A DNA stretch of 60,888 nt, filler included, from Coriobacteriales bacterium (GCA_031263105.1; 5 parts of 5 records of this genome joined end to end with filler, not necessarily neighbours in it); one strand, 5' to 3'. Numbered from the whole stretch's first letter, positions 1-12,000 are shown. A program made the numbers.

Positions 1-3000
1 GCGGCCTGAACGCCCGGTCCAGTAGTCGTACTCCTTTTTTACCTCGTCGGAGGCGTTCTCGTAGTCGGTCAATGGCAGGTAACTCATGGTGTGCTCCTTC
101 CCCGTGTGGCCCGTGTCGCCTGTGCCGCAGTGTCGCTAATACGACGGGTCTGCTGCTACGGTTTCGCTCGGCCACAGTTGAAACTATTGGAATCTTATAA
201 GCGTAGTATACAACCTCATCCGGCATGATGGGGCCATAAACAACGAATAGCCAAAACAGAAGCTACGGTTCAAAAGGCGGCGGGTCAACCAGCAACTTGG
301 CGAGCGCCCGATAATGTGCCGTCATCTCGCTTGCGGGATACGCCTCCACCACCGTTTTGCCGAGGCTTTCCGCACGCTGGATGTCGGGATGACGGGGCAG
401 ACGGTATACAACATCGGTTCCTATCTCACGGGCGGCCCTGTCCACCAGGGCATCCTCGTCCTCTATGCCCTTCGCGTTCAAGATGATGCCGCGAAGCGCC
501 GCGTATCCCTGCTTGGAAAAGTTCCTGACTGCGGTGGCGATGTTTGATGCCGCGTACAGGGACATCATCTCTCCTGAGCTCACGATACAGACCTCATCGG
601 CGTAGCCCTGCCGGATGGGCTGCGTAAAGCCACCGCAGACCACATCTCCCAGCACGTCATAAAGGACGATGTCAGGCTCGTAAACTGCATAGGCATCGAG
701 TTCCTCCAACTTCTCAAAGGCCGTGATGATGCCTCGCCCAGCGCAGCCTACCCCCGGGAGCGGTCCGCCGGCCTCCACGCAAAGCACGCCGCAGGCTCCT
801 TTTACTACCAACTCATCCAAGTTCACCTCTCTGCGCGTGCGGAGAAGGTCGAGTACGGTGGGGATGCCAACGCCCCCGGTGAGGCTTCTTGTCGAGTCCG
901 CCTTGGGATCGCATCCTATCTGCAGAACCCTCAGACCCATGCCTGCCAGTGCCGCCGCAAGGTTGCCGGTGGTCGTGGACTTGCCGATGCCGCCCTTGCC
1001 GTAGACAGCCAGTTTCTTCATAATGCCCCATCCTCGGATTCGGTAGTGTCGGATGATGACGGGCCCTTGCCGTCCCGTCCGTCCCGTCCGCTCCGCTCGT
1101 CCCGCTCATCCCGCCCATCCCGTCTGTTCTGTCCATCCCGCCCGTCTCGTCTGTTCTGTCCGCTCGGCTCATCCCGTCCGTCCCGTCCATCCCACTCGTC
1201 CCGCTCATCCCACTCGTTCCTCGTGTCGTGCTCATAGGCCAGCCCGGCGTTAAGCCAGAAGTCGAGCAGGTTCAAGGCGCCGCGGAAGCCCAGGAAGGGA
1301 GGCTCGTAGGGATTGACGCGCCAGCGGAGGTCGGGGTTTGCTATCTGTAAGCCCCTGAGTCTCTGCGAGGTCTCTGCGCCGCGGTCTCTCAGGGAGAGTG
1401 CCTCGCCGCTTGCCATAAGCAGCCCAGCCCTGTGACGCACGACCTCTTGTGACCACGCATCCTCCGTAAGAAAGGGAAGCCCCTCCGTACCCATTTCAGG
1501 ATCGTCGCACCAGCACAGGCCACGAGAGCCACCCAGCTCCTCATCCGCAAAGGCGAGGATACCCTTCACGACATCGATGTGTCCTCCGATTGACAACCGT
1601 ACCGCGCGGGGGCTTTTGTTTGCCAGATGCGAGAAAACGGGCGCAAGCCGTGCGCTCAGTGTCTGAGACTCCTCGTTCTCCCTGGCAAGGAAGCGCTCGT
1701 CGACTGGCAGACCGCTCGCTTGCGCAACCTGTCGTATCCAACGGGTTGTGGCCGGGGCACCATAAGGGCGTCCTATCACGAAAGCTGTGCCAAAACGTTT
1801 GTGCAGGCAGCGCGCGGCCGCCTCTCCCTCGTGTCGGATGACCAGGTTTACCCGCGCGTTGCTCATGTGCCGGATCTGTTCCACCGAACAATCGGAGGTC
1901 ATAACGCACAACGGCGTCATCCCAAAGGCCCCGGTCATTATCCGCTCCAGCTCCTGCGCGTCCGCTTTGAAGCGGAACAGGTCGGCACACGAGCCGATGA
2001 TGTTGAACGATAATGGCTCCGCCTGTCCTGCCGCCCGTCCTCCCGCCCGTCCTCCCGCCCGTCCTCCCGCCGGTGCTACCCCCGCCCCCGCCGCATCTAC
2101 TCGCGTCGTCTGTCCCGGTCTGCCAGCAAGGGACTCAGCCAGACGAAGGAGTGCCCCGCGTACTCCCTGAGGCTGTGTTGCGTCGAGGCTCCCGTGCCCA
2201 AAGGGAATGAGCAGGGCTTCAGGGTACTTCTCGCGTAATCCCTGACAGAGAGACGCAAGGTCCACACCGATGATCTGGGGTATGGATGAGGGGAGAAGGA
2301 ATACGACGTGGTGTCCGTCTTTCCGTATGATGACGTCAAGCGCCTCATCCAGCCGGTCGGTTCTGCCCAGCGCTATGTCCGTCTCGTCAAGATGCGTGGA
2401 GTACAGGCTGCACGATACGGGCACACCGGCCCTGTCCAGAAGCGAATGACTGTAGAGCAGGTGCCCCATGCACCCGAATTCCAGGAGCGCGGCGCCTCGG
2501 ATGGGCGCAAGCGTCCAGAGCGTCCCCATGCGCCCGGAAGAAGGCGGTGTGAATCGGTACAGGCCCATGTCTCATCCCCGTCCCTGCCGTGTGATCGCAG
2601 CAGTCGCAGCGGTCGCAGTAGTCGCAGTAGTCGCAGAGGATGAGGAGCCCACGTTTGCGCTGCCCTCTTTTTCTTCGACGGCACGCAACAGAAGTTCCAG
2701 CAGGCCGATCATCCGGTCGTAGCCGAGCTTTGTTCGCAGGGTGCCCACAGAAGGCAGGCACATGCTTGGGCTTTTGCCGGGCAGTGCGCCGAAGCAGAAA
2801 TCAGGGTCGAGGTCCTGCAGCGCTGCCGCATCCTGTCGCACGTTCACCAGGTGGCAGACCAAAGGGTCATAGCCCTTTGCGTTGAGTTGCTGTGCCTGCG
2901 CCCGTTGCGCAGGCGCGAAGTCATCGATATGGAGGAGCAGCGGTTCCATGCCGAGCTCCGCAAGATAAAGGGCCAGCGGGATGGGCGAGACCTCGCCGAG

Positions 3001-9000: not shown

Positions 9001-12000
9001 TGCTCGTCGAGTGCGCCGCGCCATCGATGGTAAAGACCATGCCGTCTTTTACTGCCTGAATGGTCTGCCAGACGGGACTACTCTGGAGCTCTTCGGCAAT
9101 GGCTTCGTCTCCGTTGAATACCGCGAGGAAGAGTATGTCCGGGTTCATCTCCGCCAATGTCTCCAGCGGCACCTGTTGGTAGCCGGCACCGAACTCTGGG
9201 TAACCCGTTGGCGCGGTAAAGCCCAGGCCAAGTGCGGGATCATAGAACTCGCCTCTGCGGGCGCTGAAGTACCTGTCCTTGCCCATCACCGAAAGCATGA
9301 CGACGGTCTTTCCTTCCAGGGTGGCGCTCAGTTGTTCCCTGTCGCTGGCAAGCTGTGCATCGAACTGGGTGATCCGCTCCTCTGCCTCGTCTTCCAGGCC
9401 AAGTATCTTCCCAAATTCCCGAAGGGCGTAGCGGCTGTCCTGCCCAAGCTGCCCATCCATGACGATGACCGGTGCTATCTTCTCCAGGTTCTCGACGCCA
9501 TCGGGTGTGGCGATGAAGATAAGGTCGGGTGCGAGTGCTGTGAGCTTCTCAAGGTTGAGCGTGGGGTCGCCCATGTCCTCGACGCCACTCACCTCATAAT
9601 CCTCAAACGCGTCCCAGGTCTGCCGGTAGTGCTCCGCGCTTGACGCGCCGGCGGGCATGATGCCAAGGGCCATCAGGTATTCCCAGTAGGGGAGGTAGTC
9701 GACGACTATCTTCTCCGGGAACTTCTCAAGGGTGACCGTTCTGCCGGCTGCGTCGGTATAGGTGCGTGGCCAGGCGCTATCCTCCGTTGTGGTTGTTGAT
9801 GATGTTGAGGCGGGCGGTTGGTTCTGCGGCTCGTCGGTGGCGGGGTTGCCGCATCCTGCGATCCCCGCGATTCCTCCGCCTATGAGCAGGGTGATGAGCA
9901 GCAGGCTGATGAAACGACGTGTCATGGTTCCTCCTTTTGTTAGCAAGAGCTAACTCCTTGTGTGCAAAAAACCGCTGCGAGAACGGCTCTGATGGCGCGC
10001 CCTGTTCCTGGCGCCATGCGAGTGTAATGAGAGTCGGCTCGACGGTCAATGGACGCATTCCAGGAAGGGATGGACTTTCTCCATGTTGCCGTTCGCGCGC
10101 TACCCTGTCATTGCGAGGGAGCGAAGCGACCGCGGCAATCTTTCTCCGCGTCGCAGCGCGCGAGGCAACAGGGTGGGCACGACGGGTCAGGCATGATAAG
10201 TCAGGCACGACGAGTCAGGCTGTGGGCGTTGCTTCTTTTGAGCGTGAGGCAAAGACACTCGGTGCCATGCCCGTGTGTTTCTTAAAGAGCCTGCTGAAAT
10301 AGTAACTGTCGCTGAAGCCGACACTTCTGGCGACCTGCTCTATCGTATAAAGGCCGGTGCCGAGCAGCTCTTTGGCATGGCGCATGCGTATGTTGACGAG
10401 GTAATGGGATGGCGCCATGCCAACGTGCTTGGAGAAGAGATAACCAAAGTGTTTCGCGCTCATGTCGTACAGGGCTGCCACCTGCTGGATGCTCAGTTCT
10501 TCTCCGTAGCTTTTGTCGAGGAAGGCAAGGGCATCGTCTATCAGGCTGCGCTCGTCAGCCTGGTTGTGGCGATGAACGGCGGTAACGACCTCCTCTATCA
10601 GACCGGCAAAAAGCGTTCGTGAGCGCAGCGTCGCCAGGCACCCGTTGTTCCGCGTGCTCGCGTGAAGCTGACGCGCGTGCTCAAGCAGGCGGATGTTGCT
10701 GCCTGTCTCGGCGCAGAAGTGCGAACGATAGAGAGGAAAGCTGCTCTCCTCCTGCTTGGGGATGGTGTAGTGTATCAGCACGCAACCCCAGTGGCTATCG
10801 CCCATGACCCGTTTCTCCAGCTCCATGGCGGCTCCGGCATGCAATACGACTCCGGGTTTGAGCTCATAGGAAACGCCGTTGAGGGTATAGCGCGCTTTTC
10901 CGCATAAGGGTATGACCAGCCCACTTCCCTCGGGGCTCGTTGTGGGGTCTGAAAGCTCCGTGTGAGCCGGAACGACGCCCTCAAAGGTGTCGTGCAGGGA
11001 CGGCTGGGCAAAGGTGTAATACTCGGCGAGCTCATTGGCATCGATAGTCATGATAACTCCTGGCGAGGGTAGGGCTTTCCGTCGTTAAGTTAGTGTATCA
11101 TAACTTCATCGACCGACAGCCCGGCATTCGCATGTGCACAACGGACGGGCGTCGCCGCAGCCCGTAACCATGTCGCCGTCGTGCTCATGTGGGTAGTTTG
11201 GCCATGCAGTATTGGGTGAGGCCCAACTCCCTGTTGGTGGTGAGGCGGATGATCTCAAAGCCTTTGTGCATGTAGATATTCATGGAGCGTTCCGCGTAGG
11301 TCTCAAGGCACAGGGGGATGCGCAGGCGTTCCGCGCGGGCGATGACCGGGTCAAAAAGCGCGCTCAGTACGCCTCGGCCCCGGTAGTGCGGGTTCACGCA
11401 TGCGGCGGCCAGGTAACCGTAACCATCAGGAAAAGCCTGCGTACACCAGGAGTCGCTGTCCAGGACTTTCAAGCGGTGCGCGTGTTCTCTGATCAGGCGC
11501 GCCTCGGCTGTGCTCAGAGTGCTGCAACCACGCTGGAGCCCGCGCTCCCAGAGCGCCGCGTAGTCGGCGGAGCTAAAGGCACCCGCCGTGTCAAAGAGCA
11601 GCGTGCCGGCCGGCAGNNNNNNNNNNNNNNNNNNNNNNNNNNNNNNNNNNNNNNNNNNNNTTAATTAATTAANNNNNNNNNNNNNNNNNNNNNNNNNNNN
11701 NNNNNNNNNNNNNNNNTTCATCTCCACTGTCATCCCGAGCCTGCCGAGGGATCCTCGACGTGCCAAGTCTCAGTCTCCTTTCCTGCATTCCTTCATCTCC
11801 ACTGTCATCCCGAGCCTGCCGAGGGATCCTCGACCGCGCCAGCGGTCGACCGCAGGCCGAGGGGCCCTGCGACCTGCCGTTGGACACTGCGTGATCCGTG
11901 GGCCTGCCGGCCCGTCCTCGCTGAAAAAGCGATTGGTTTTGCGGGCGCTCGGACCCAAAGATTCCTCGGCGGAGCTCGGAATGACAGTGGGGGTGTGAAC

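Follow-up and report, generated by a model that had tools for sequence, protein, structure and literature searches.

A nitrogenase-like reductase encoded with a siderophore-type importer: a candidate import-then-reduce system for iron chelates in a gut member of the Coriobacteriales

One contig of the draft genome of a gut anaerobe of the Coriobacteriales is filled by an operon in which a nitrogenase-like (NFL) trio, here called NflD, NflK and NflH, is encoded together with an ABC importer. We propose, tentatively and with somewhat less than even confidence, that this operon encodes, as one self-contained unit, both the import of an iron chelate and its subsequent reduction, and that a ferric siderophore is the most likely substrate here. 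Neighbour counts support a tie between the trio and a chelate importer that is consistent far beyond chance, and by tree placement the trio falls in a larger, monophyletic family of NFL reductases that are linked to importers. The first-pass annotation had taken the trio for an orphan branch unseen before; this is not so, since Dos Santos et al. 2012 touched on members, as 'NifEN-like' proteins, and on their ABC-transporter neighbours (PMC3464626). The novelty lies in how widely the clade is linked to type II ABC importers.

The window (the whole stretch of DNA analysed, 60,888 nucleotides) consists of several draft-genome contigs joined by runs of N, and true neighbours end at position 11616, where contig C221 (1–11616) stops. 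All nine genes of this contig lie on the minus strand, in the order AraC regulator, binding protein, ABC exporter, two FecCD permeases, ATPase, NflD, NflK and NflH, which confirms the annotated gene order and families of a nitrogenase-like trio inside a Fhu-type import operon. The AraC-family regulator (10215..11051; 278 aa; Pfam HTH_18 and HTH_AraC, only the C-terminal HTH domain being recognised) is encoded on the same strand, 268 nt upstream of a run of eight genes from the binding protein to NflH, in which successive genes overlap or are separated by at most 17 nt. The run opens with a Peripla_BP_2 binding protein of siderophore type (8945..9946, assigned by Pfam; an ATG at 9925 may be the start) and an accessory gene for an MsbA-like ABC exporter half-transporter of 571 aa (7214..8929; Pfam ABC_membrane and ABC_tran). 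A FhuB-like FecCD-family permease (6117..7196; Pfam FecCD, E = 7.6e-87; closest NCBIfam model FhuB, with every match under its cut-off) is followed by a second, FhuG-like permease (4927..6120 within a long ORF of 4927–6285; Pfam FecCD, E = 2.5e-94 over long-ORF residues 135–449), whose likely start is a GTG at 6120 preceded by AGGAGG. The importer ATPase, FecE/FhuC-like (4050..4916 within a long ORF of 4050–4994; Pfam ABC_tran; likely start 4916 or 4913), precedes the trio: the NflD-like catalytic subunit (P0001; 2572..4053; 493 aa; Pfam Oxidored_nitro, E = 1.7e-55), the NflK-like subunit (P0002; 1018..2568; 516 aa; Oxidored_nitro, E = 2.9e-42) and NflH (P0003; 263..1021; 252 aa; Fer4_NifH, E = 3.2e-90), an ATP-dependent, Fe-protein-like reductase of the NifH family. 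Overlaps of 4 nt occur at the FhuC/NflD and NflK/NflH junctions. A partly truncated second copy is likewise confirmed on C232 (6220–16562); it comprises AraC, binding protein, exporter, FhuB, FhuG, FhuC, D′, K′, a second binding protein and H′, with D′ reduced to domain I (236 aa) and K′ (about 268–286 aa) lacking domain III.

The trio is best described as a divergent, non-nitrogenase member of the nitrogenase superfamily. In the trees, NflD falls within its own clade (support 99–100) and so does NflK (support 100). The ordinary character of the H protein was reproduced: NflH matches Clostridium pasteurianum NifH (1cp2) with E = 4.2e-76, has its Walker A motif at residues 8–15 and its cluster cysteines at Cys93 and Cys129, and scores 318 bits against the NCBIfam CfbC model (cut-off 402) and 309 bits against NifH (cut-off 394). 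The weak resemblance of the D protein (g02257) to solved nitrogenases was also recovered, the best match being VnfK (E = 3.4e-6); chains of DPOR, COR and CfbD are absent from its 22 solved-structure matches at E up to 1. A profile of the D family finds as its best solved match the NifE(N) chain 9i0g (E = 1.5e-44). The AlphaFold2 model of NflD (mean pLDDT 87.5) resembles the fold of nitrogenase component 1 (TM 0.5–0.6), and low confidence is confined to a low-complexity, lineage-specific insert at about residues 170–215 and to the similarly low-complexity tail; NflK has a comparable insert (155–183) and tail (about 445–516).

The ligand pattern points to a simple [4Fe-4S] site as the likely arrangement, as had been suggested. 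Cys36, Cys61 and Cys118 of NflD align with the three canonical NifD/BchN ligand columns and are kept in 106 of 109 full-length relatives; equivalents of NifD Cys275 or His442 were not found in NflD, and FeMo-co ligands are thus absent. The earlier assignment of cysteine ligands by eye thus stands for NflD. It fails for NflK, where Cys33, invariant in 24/24 sequences, lies three residues before the canonical site and outside the canonical columns, which are occupied by Ser11, His36 and Ser95. His36 aligns with an Asp of a BchB-like protein (the BchB Asp36 column), and the motif E-x-G-C33-M-G-H36 is invariant, as are many other polar residues of NflK, a highly conserved protein. This conservation suggests a specific substrate pocket more than outer-sphere electron transfer to varied chelates, and it counts against the reading proposed here. 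No NifB gene is present on contig C221, as previously noted. A separate NFL cluster, adjoined by a radical-SAM gene, lies on C113 of the same genome.

The importer of this subclade fits the siderophore type, judged by its two different permeases and its FhuD/FepB/FecB-like binding proteins, and the siderophore reading agrees with it in this respect. Among solved structures the binding protein has 43 matches, every one of them a binder of siderophores or iron; Bacillus subtilis FhuD (3hxp, E = 7.5e-26) comes first, and no haem or B12 binder is included. For 14 further binding proteins of the subclade, the best NCBIfam match was FepB or FecB in 14/14; IsdE was always weaker and BtuF never appeared as a match. 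The importer ATPase scores 311 bits against FecE, 253 against FepC, 229 against FhuC, 217 against the corrinoid model and 209 against the haem model. Several subclade loci carry two binding-protein genes, a trait of xenosiderophore importers. Among NCBIfam models the regulator comes closest to the DNA-binding part of Btr, which regulates bacillibactin transport (E = 3e-22); the N-terminal 164 aa of the window's regulator gave nothing in a Pfam search at E up to 1. As a sign of iron regulation in one genus, the two Paenibacillus loci have Fur-box matches with no or one mismatch in the stretch that separates nflH from the divergent AraC gene; none was found in the expected promoter regions of the window contig, C232 or 28 of 31 loci with a Bacillus-type consensus that may misfit Clostridia. 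Scans of the window contig and of seven subclade loci returned no riboswitch. The exporter scores 447 bits against NCBIfam MsbA, below the cut-off of 602. It had been thought peculiar to this genome, which proved incorrect: an exporter is present in 11 of 80 related loci, and in four of these it takes the position seen in C221. The C232 cluster has its exporter in the same position (63% identical to the C221 copy), and copies of about 40% identity adjoin operons of a sister subclade.

The window subclade comprises matches in at least 202 species genomes, from which 80 loci were kept for neighbour counts. A permease was found in 69/80, a binding protein in 68/80 and an ATPase in 65/80; 11/80 have no permease within 6 kb, and one locus (L012) none within 10 kb. 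The claimed synteny with the importer across 31 species loci was borne out, with Fhu-type permeases in 28/31, AraC in 27/31 and the ATPase directly before NflH in 22/31; NflH directly precedes NflD, in the order H-D-K, in all 31. Since no other neighbouring gene family occurs in more than three of these 31 loci, reductase and importer make up the whole module. In the trees, the K subunits of this subclade and of a haem-linked subclade are sisters (support 99), and the D subunits group (support 87). A third, very divergent trio, in the methanogen Ca. Methanoplasma, is preceded by a binding protein, FecCD and ATPase. That both the sister subclade and this trio are likewise wired to importers gives independent support to the idea that imported iron chelates are the family's substrates.

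Comparison with described systems helps to define the family. The 'NifEN-like' proteins of Dos Santos et al. 2012, from Clostridium botulinum (CLM_0808/0809) and Alkaliphilus oremlandii (Clos_0313/0314), belong to the window clade, as a C. botulinum homologue (L010) falls inside both the D and the K clades. As described there (PMC3464626), they have three cysteines in the E/D-like subunit, none canonical in the N/K-like subunit, and genes that follow those for NifH and an ABC ATPase, in agreement with the clade; the window operon differs in its order D-K-H instead of H-D-K, its added exporter and the low-complexity inserts in D and K. DPOR (BchL/BchN/BchB) and COR, of Group V, are like the trio two-component, ATP-driven and free of a complex cluster, with three cysteines contributed by N/D and one non-Cys residue by B/K in the same column (Asp in the BchB-like protein, His36 here). 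However, the NCBIfam BchN, BchB and BchZ models score the window proteins at only 21–47 bits against cut-offs of 420–529, the window D and K form a separate clade, and they are encoded with an importer and not among genes for pigment synthesis. CfbCD (Group IV-B, F430 synthesis) shares a simple [4Fe-4S] catalytic component, and CfbC is the best family model for NflH, although below its cut-off; CfbD is a single subunit, its model TIGR03282 matches neither window D nor K, and the CfbD reference lies outside both clades. The Group IV-A/C/D/E proteins with NflB (MAR, Nfa), to which the C113 cluster belongs, are of the same superfamily but keep the Cys275 equivalent, the P-cluster cysteines and a NifB-like radical-SAM partner, none of which the window trio has; no organism names of the window clade occur in the supplement of a 2026 MAR survey. 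Group VI proteins of Elusimicrobia (Meheust et al. 2020) also have highly divergent D/K subunits with few cluster cysteines, no NifB and proposed chelate-like substrates, but by description their NflH shares about 40% identity with NifH and is encoded among radical-SAM genes, whereas the window NflH is a close NifH relative with no radical-SAM neighbour. ChuW/HutW/HmuW with HmuF, which release haem iron anaerobically (PMC10404700), have the same proposed role and belong to unrelated enzyme families; HmuF/FldH-like flavodoxins also occur in the sister subclade.

In the proposed pathway, the AraC regulator is probably the chelate sensor. By family membership, the lipoprotein-type binding protein, the two FecCD permeases and the ATPase would move a siderophore-type iron chelate into the cytoplasm. 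By homology with NifH, BchL and CfbC, the NflH dimer would hydrolyse ATP and push low-potential electrons into NflD/NflK, which would have neither a P-cluster nor a FeMo-co-like cluster; a single [4Fe-4S] is predicted between the two subunits, held by the three NflD cysteines and His36 or Cys33 of NflK. The imported chelate might then be reduced and its iron freed as Fe(II), a step suggested by gene context, and the ABC exporter may, more speculatively, remove the iron-free ligand. Cytoplasmic ferric-siderophore reductases of the FhuF and ViuB/YqjH types have the same role as that proposed here and belong to unrelated families. The known enzymes of this kind are simple proteins with flavin or [2Fe-2S] and work independently of ATP, and none of the known iron-release systems (ChuW/HutW/HmuW, FhuF or ViuB/YqjH) uses an ATP-driven Fe protein. 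An ATP-driven system would therefore be required only for chelates of very low potential, a point against the proposal. The likeliest substrate is a ferric siderophore of a potential too low for ordinary reductases, for example a catecholate.

The earlier proposal of a reductase acting on the imported chelate thus gains from the importer wiring and the importer type; its substrate is contested, because the haem context of the sister subclade backs a tetrapyrrole. That subclade (at least 248 species genomes, mostly gut bacteria) appears, from its gene content, to do an equivalent job on haem, freeing its iron. Its operons place a haem/B12-type binding protein, a single FecCD permease and an ATPase between nflH and nflDK, and the in-operon binding protein matches IsdE (86 bits) and BtuF best. 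In 30/80 loci the operon includes an HmuF/FldH-like flavodoxin of the haem-binding type, whose best solved relative is haem-bound FldH (8G64, E = 2.8e-11) and which keeps the haem-ligating His in 29 of the 30; ChaN (PF04187) occurs in 7/80, TonB-dependent receptors belong to the haem/B12 type, and a cobalamin riboswitch heads the gene string in two Phascolarctobacterium loci among 33 scanned. These genes keep strong the alternative that the imported substrate is haem, another metalloporphyrin or a corrinoid, whose macrocycle would be reduced either to loosen and release the metal or for the salvage or remodelling of a cofactor. The DPOR-like pattern, in which three cysteines are joined by a non-Cys residue in the column of BchB Asp36, fits it, and DPOR, COR and CfbCD, given in PMC13474568 as the characterised [4Fe-4S]-only NFL enzymes, all reduce a tetrapyrrole ring. 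We nevertheless rate a tetrapyrrole as a serious rival that is less likely than a siderophore for the window operon: in its own subclade the importer is of the siderophore type, riboswitches were not seen in the window contig or in seven loci, and HmuF-like flavodoxin, ChaN and radical-SAM families are each confined to three or fewer of the 31 loci. Identity to the sister proteins is 21–31% for D and 22–38% for K, so substrates may differ, and the sister subclade has Pro and Thr in place of NflK Cys33 and His36.

It is improbable, in our estimate, that the enzyme instead attacks the imported ligand itself by reductive cleavage of one of its bonds (a hydroxamate N–O or other), destroying the chelator for iron or as a nutrient, in the manner of C–S cleavage by MAR and ISR. 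These are the reductive bond cleavers that PMC13474568 places beyond tetrapyrrole metabolism; the window binding protein's best solved relative binds hydroxamate, the conserved polar residues of the NflK pocket suggest a defined organic substrate, and both Paenibacillus clusters include a luciferase-like monooxygenase gene. MAR, however, uses P-like and L-like clusters made with a NifB homologue, the ligand equivalents of which are absent here; the binding proteins are diverse (26–35% identity), which argues against one fixed organic substrate, and conserved downstream catabolic genes were not found in the 31 loci. Dos Santos et al. 2012, in describing the 'NifEN-like' proteins, left function unassigned beyond suggesting metal transport coupled to cofactor assembly (PMC3464626), a published proposal with which the NifE(N) match of the D profile agrees. 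We rate it lower still, because the Cys275-column cysteine common to NifE and NifD is missing, the module includes no NifB, NifX or client enzyme in the 31 loci, and the importer takes chelates and not free metal. A cryptic or back-up nitrogenase has only the closeness of NflH to NifH in its favour and is barely credible: NflK lacks all three P-cluster cysteines, NflD lacks the Cys275 and His442 equivalents, and every NCBIfam nitrogenase model scores far below its cut-off.

If the import-then-reduce reading of a ferric siderophore is true, a widespread nitrogenase-like family would release iron from imported siderophores without oxygen, and its sister group would do so from haem.

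The draft genome from which the sequence comes comprises 250 contigs (2.9 Mb, 64.5% G+C, completeness 86%, contamination 6.5%), and the window is made up of contigs C221, C222, C223, C224 and C226, with paired N runs at 11617, 25337, 44716 and 50878. Because these are separate contigs, real gene context is provided by C221 only, the first 11,616 bases. This contig is filled by nine genes, all on the minus strand. An AraC regulator comes first in operon order, and the other genes encode a Peripla_BP_2 binding protein, an MsbA-like ABC exporter that follows it, two FecCD permeases, a FecE/FhuC-like ATPase and a nitrogenase-like (NFL) trio: the Oxidored_nitro proteins NflD (493 aa, directly after the ATPase) and NflK (516 aa), and the NifH-family protein NflH (252 aa), which has a Walker A motif and two cluster cysteines, Cys93 and Cys129. 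Adjacent genes in the run from the binding protein to NflH overlap or are spaced by at most 17 nt, and the AraC gene lies 268 nt upstream. The central observation of the first-pass annotation, a nitrogenase-like trio inside a Fhu-type importer operon, is confirmed by gene order and Pfam. The type II (FecCD/BtuCD-class) importer set on C221 is complete, with Pfam matches for the permeases, the ATPase and the Peripla_BP_2 protein (four proteins), and every NCBIfam match of these proteins is to an Fe-hydroxamate, Fe-dicitrate or Fe-enterobactin model, each under its equivalog cut-off. A riboswitch scan of C221 returned none, promoter-like sites occur near chance, and terminator-like sites are slightly above chance (13 versus 7.5 expected), with none at the 3′ end of the operon in the terminator scan. 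Among public runs no RNA runs are listed for the operon. The sole public run listed with DNA matching window positions 1100–11050 is labelled termite gut metagenome and may be the assembly source; termite-associated names also occur among the relatives (Ca. Methanoplasma glyptotermitis and Sporobacter termitidis).

The same genome carries two further NFL loci. A second, truncated copy of the operon, also claimed in the first-pass annotation, is indeed found on contig C232: the gene order is the same and includes the exporter (63% identical), D′ and K′ are shortened to 236 aa and approximately 270–286 aa, H′ is intact, and there is an additional binding protein. On contig C113, an NflH of 302 aa, an NflD of 540 aa that keeps the equivalent of Cys275 and an NflK of 447 aa are followed by a radical-SAM (NifB-like) gene. 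This cluster is of the NifB-linked classical kind and is unrelated to the Fhu-linked trio.

The association with the importer extends well beyond this genome. In 31 species loci gathered using NflD, NflH directly precedes NflD in every case, and Fhu-type permease genes are present in 28 (upstream on the same strand in 26, divergent in two Paenibacillus loci). AraC is found in 27 of the 31 and the ATPase lies immediately before NflH in 22; at four loci of the window's subclade (L002, L004, L023 and L029) both permeases are kept but no importer ATPase gene lies between FhuG and NflH. The D-K-H order of the window is a local rearrangement. No further neighbour family recurs in more than 3 of the 31 loci. 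A profile scan places this Fhu-linked subclade in at least 202 species genomes, the hosts being Bacillota and a few others, and among 80 loci kept the permease is present in 69, the binding protein in 68, the ATPase in 65 and the ABC exporter in 11 (four at the position seen in the window).

The importer of the window is of the siderophore kind, given its two permeases and the matches of its binding protein. All 43 solved-structure matches of the latter are siderophore or iron binders, the best being Bacillus subtilis FhuD (E 7.5e-26), while 14 of 14 further binding proteins of the subclade match FepB or FecB best among the family models, and BtuF is absent from their matches. Near-perfect Fur boxes (0–1 mismatch) flank AraC in two Paenibacillus loci (L017 and L018), one of them directly before nflH; by the same Bacillus-type consensus there are none in the window or the other loci. 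These two loci also have a luciferase-like monooxygenase gene between the binding protein and AraC (at about 6694–8007 and 8039–9042). A riboswitch scan of 33 loci gave matches in two Phascolarctobacterium loci only.

The joint alignment of the D and K subunits took NifD, NifK, NifE, NifN, CfbD, NifB-linked group IV pairs, H-D fusions and BchN-like and BchB-like proteins as references. Cys36, Cys61 and Cys118 of NflD occupy the three canonical ligand columns; 106 of 109 full-length relatives conserve them, within the motifs G-x-H-C-P-[ML], E-C and T-C-x-P-E. The canonical columns of NflK hold Ser11, His36 and Ser95, and P-cluster cysteines are absent there; His36 shares its column with an Asp of the BchB-like protein and is preceded by three residues by an invariant Cys33. 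The cysteine assignment made by eye in the first-pass annotation therefore stands for NflD but not for NflK, where Cys33 is off-column. Pairing of D and K subunits is textbook knowledge, and a fourth cluster ligand could be supplied by NflK, as either His36 or Cys33; in the K subunits of the sister subclade, whose importers are of haem/B12 type, these residues are replaced by Thr and Pro. At the columns of Cys275 and His442, where the NifD reference has Cys and His, all Fhu-linked D subunits examined have a gap or no residue. Two other early claims hold: no NifB gene lies on C221, nor does a NifB-like radical-SAM gene recur in the 31 loci, and the H protein is an ordinary one, NflH matching Clostridium pasteurianum NifH over its full length at E 4.2e-76.

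Both large subunits carry low-complexity inserts or tails rich in Arg, Asp, Gly and Ala: in NflD an insert at about residues 170–215 (window 3406–3546), and in NflK an insert at 155–183 (2020–2106) and a tail at about 445–516 (1018–1236). They are absent from all 23 aligned K relatives and seem to be expansions peculiar to this high-GC lineage. The AlphaFold2 model of NflD (pLDDT 87.5) is confident outside its low-complexity insert and tail, where pLDDT falls below 50–65. In a fold search the model has the nitrogenase component 1 fold, with TM 0.5–0.6 alike to NifK, NifD, NifEN, MarD and ChlN, and without discrimination between groups. Profile comparison puts the D family closest to a NifE(N) chain (E 1.5e-44), with DPOR further away (about 1e-15 to 1e-17), and NflK is roughly equidistant from MarD, NifE and BchB.

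A search of 1.84 billion representative proteins returned 319 matches at E ≤ 1e-3, 184 of them at E ≤ 1e-10. In trees, the D and K families each form a separate clade (support 99–100), apart from NifD/E, NifK/N, the NifB-linked group IV pairs, H-D fusions, CfbD and the BchN/B-like pairs. The K clade fell on the ‘D side’ of the midpoint in the first tree with a support of just 56, and was placed otherwise in the second. A C. botulinum homologue falls inside the clade of the window. The proteins of C. botulinum and A. oremlandii were called NifEN-like by Dos Santos et al. (2012; PMC3464626), whose available text describes three cysteines in one subunit and zero in the other, a position downstream of NifH and an ABC ATPase, and a suggestion that metal transport is coupled to cofactor assembly. 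Given its cysteine pattern, its adjacent NifH and ABC genes and its clustering with the C. botulinum proteins, the trio is a member of this importer-linked NFL clade, the ‘light-blue’ NifEN-like group of that study. In the literature searched on nitrogenase-like proteins, covering siderophore, transporter, haem/corrinoid, Fur or Clostridium topics, the clade is mentioned in Dos Santos et al. 2012 only, and no function assignment for it was found; of the names botulinum, sporogenes, oremlandii, argentinense, sanguinis and tetanomorphum, none occurs in the supplement to the 2026 MAR survey.

Groups IV-A to F, V and VI are listed in the available part of a 2026 NFL review (PMC13474568). Nitrogenase proper (NifDK/VnfDK/AnfDK) is rejected, since of six P-cluster cysteines D has three and K none, the FeMo-co ligands Cys275 and His442 are absent, and no nitrogenase or NifE model in NCBIfam, with cut-offs above 400, gives more than 49 bits for K or 40 bits for D. 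DPOR and COR (Group V) are represented by BchN/BchB and BchY/BchZ models that score 21–47 bits against cut-offs of 420–529, and the trio forms a separate clade from BchN/BchB-like references; judged by alignment columns alone, it resembles the inter-subunit [4Fe-4S] pattern of DPOR, with three cysteines in D and His36 of K at the column of the BchB-like Asp. CfbCD (Group IV-B), which has a single catalytic subunit, does not fit a system with two different subunits in which TIGR03282 is unmatched; the best family model of NflH is CfbC, at 318 bits and under the cut-off of 402. The NflB-linked Group IV enzymes (MAR, Nfa) are likewise rejected: a NifB-like partner, the Cys275-equivalent and the P-cluster cysteines of K are present in the group IV references and in the C113 cluster, but missing from the trio. 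Group VI is described as having an NflH approximately 40% identical to NifH, a radical-SAM-rich neighbourhood and hosts among the Elusimicrobia, Gracilibacteria or Myxococcales, whereas here NflH is a full-length NifH match, there are no radical-SAM neighbours and the hosts are Bacillota and a few others. Neither the NifB-linked groups nor CfbD, DPOR/COR or Group VI, as they are described, match the features of the clade, the separation from Group VI being one by description.

Other NFL proteins came to light alongside the clade. A BchN-like protein scoring 207–256 bits (DPOR BchN cut-off 420), with an adjoining partner gene, is encoded at L062 and L063 and, within the window's phylum, in 19 of 31 genomes of one family (f16); the tally is 21 of 401 genomes, one of them unpublished (G323). 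In the L063 member the three cluster-cysteine columns hold Ser, Glu and Arg, so that this NFL pair would be without the usual cluster. Fused NifH-NifD-like proteins of 742 aa in Clostridium tetanomorphum (L039) and 763 aa in Ca. Methanoplasma (L050), each with a K-like gene after it, form a clade of their own.

The sister subclade, which has the motif H-C-P-L-F, occurs in at least 248 species genomes, mostly of gut Bacillota and including Phascolarctobacterium faecium. Its operons run nflH, binding protein, a single FecCD permease, ATPase, nflD and nflK, with AraC often divergent. Clustering of 80 loci recovered D/K in 76, the ATPase in 67, NflH in 66, FecCD in 63, the binding protein in 59, AraC in 42, a TonB-dependent receptor in 11 and ChaN in 7, while 30 have a Flavodoxin_3 protein inside the operon. 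The best solved relative of this flavodoxin is the haem-bound FldH of Fusobacterium nucleatum (8G64, E 2.8e-11), a paralogue of the haem-trafficking anaerobilin reductase HmuF (PMC10404700), and 29 of the 30 proteins retain the haem-ligating His. The context of the sister subclade points to haem as substrate. In P. faecium a cobalamin riboswitch is followed by a TonB-dependent receptor, a TIM-barrel protein, a binding protein, NflH, an IsdE-like binding protein, FecCD, the ATPase, NflD, NflK, ChaN and a second receptor. Edge-cut cobalamin aptamers lie at 1–115 of L110 and 1–91 of L123 (both Phascolarctobacterium), before the TonB-dependent receptor gene that heads the nfl string, and suggest a corrinoid link in Phascolarctobacterium only. 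A third, very divergent trio lies behind a binding protein, FecCD and ATPase in Ca. Methanoplasma. The K subunits of one subclade are sister to those of the other (support 99), and the D subunits group together with the Methanoplasma D-like protein (support 87), for which a search of relatives returned the query only. Separately, the Fhu-linked NflD homologue of Ca. Methanoplasma glyptotermitis (L047; G001:C47:34177-35328) has one in-frame TAG; since TAG is decoded as pyrrolysine in the Methanomassiliicoccales, it may stand for Pyl here and not mark a break.

What all branches of the family share is an ATP-driven NFL reductase with a simple cluster, integrated into a type II ABC importer of metal chelates. 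This family-wide wiring supports an enzyme that acts in the cytoplasm on the chelate brought in, and the enzyme of the window probably does act on such a chelate. The first-pass annotation, which had read the trio as a very-low-potential reductase that most simply frees iron from a ferric siderophore or a haem-like tetrapyrrole, thereby gains support for its general idea of cytoplasmic action, and its interpretation is partly supported. In the subclade of the window the importer points to ferric siderophores: NflH would deliver ATP-coupled electrons, and a ferric siderophore chelate of very low potential would be reduced in the cytoplasm. ATP-coupled electron delivery would be thermodynamically sensible for such chelates. 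Release of siderophore iron by this enzyme is a real prospect, with the chances slightly below even.

A tetrapyrrole substrate is a serious rival, because every characterised [4Fe-4S]-only NFL enzyme reduces tetrapyrroles; the haem-type context of the sister subclade adds to its appeal, but the siderophore-type importer of the window's own subclade speaks against it, and it is rather unlikely here. That the imported ligand itself is cleaved is improbable, a role as cofactor scaffold slightly more so, and activity as a nitrogenase can practically be dismissed. For the family as a whole we propose, tentatively and with considerable doubt, that these proteins, an old and large family present in at least approximately 450 species genomes, among them common human-gut bacteria such as P. 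faecium, are ATP-driven chelate reductases, the branch of the window freeing iron from ferric siderophores of very low potential and the sister branch freeing haem iron via macrocycle reduction with the help of an HmuF-like haem-binding flavodoxin.

The clade as such was already noticed in 2012; what is new is how broad and deep the importer link is, that importers of two types are involved, that the sister branch has haem-type accessory genes, and that the ligand pattern has been corrected. According to the available part of the 2026 review (PMC13474568), function assignment is the main problem of the NFL field and genomic context has hitherto indicated sulfur and tetrapyrrole metabolism only; in that part ‘siderophore’ appears 0 times and ‘ABC transporter’ in a sulfonate context only. 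The context of this family is unusually clean, a self-contained module of regulator, chelate importer and reductase that is found again in hundreds of species, among them cultivable and genetically tractable ones, and its two branches have importers indicating different iron chelates. Two questions thus become testable by ordinary assays: how strict anaerobes release iron from chelates beyond ordinary reductants, and what orphan relatives of nitrogenase do. An orphan NFL branch is turned into a directly testable hypothesis which, if true, would bring a substrate class new to the nitrogenase superfamily, add an iron-acquisition mechanism relevant to gut ecology, and provide anaerobes with a third route to haem iron, beside radical-SAM ring opening and dechelatases.
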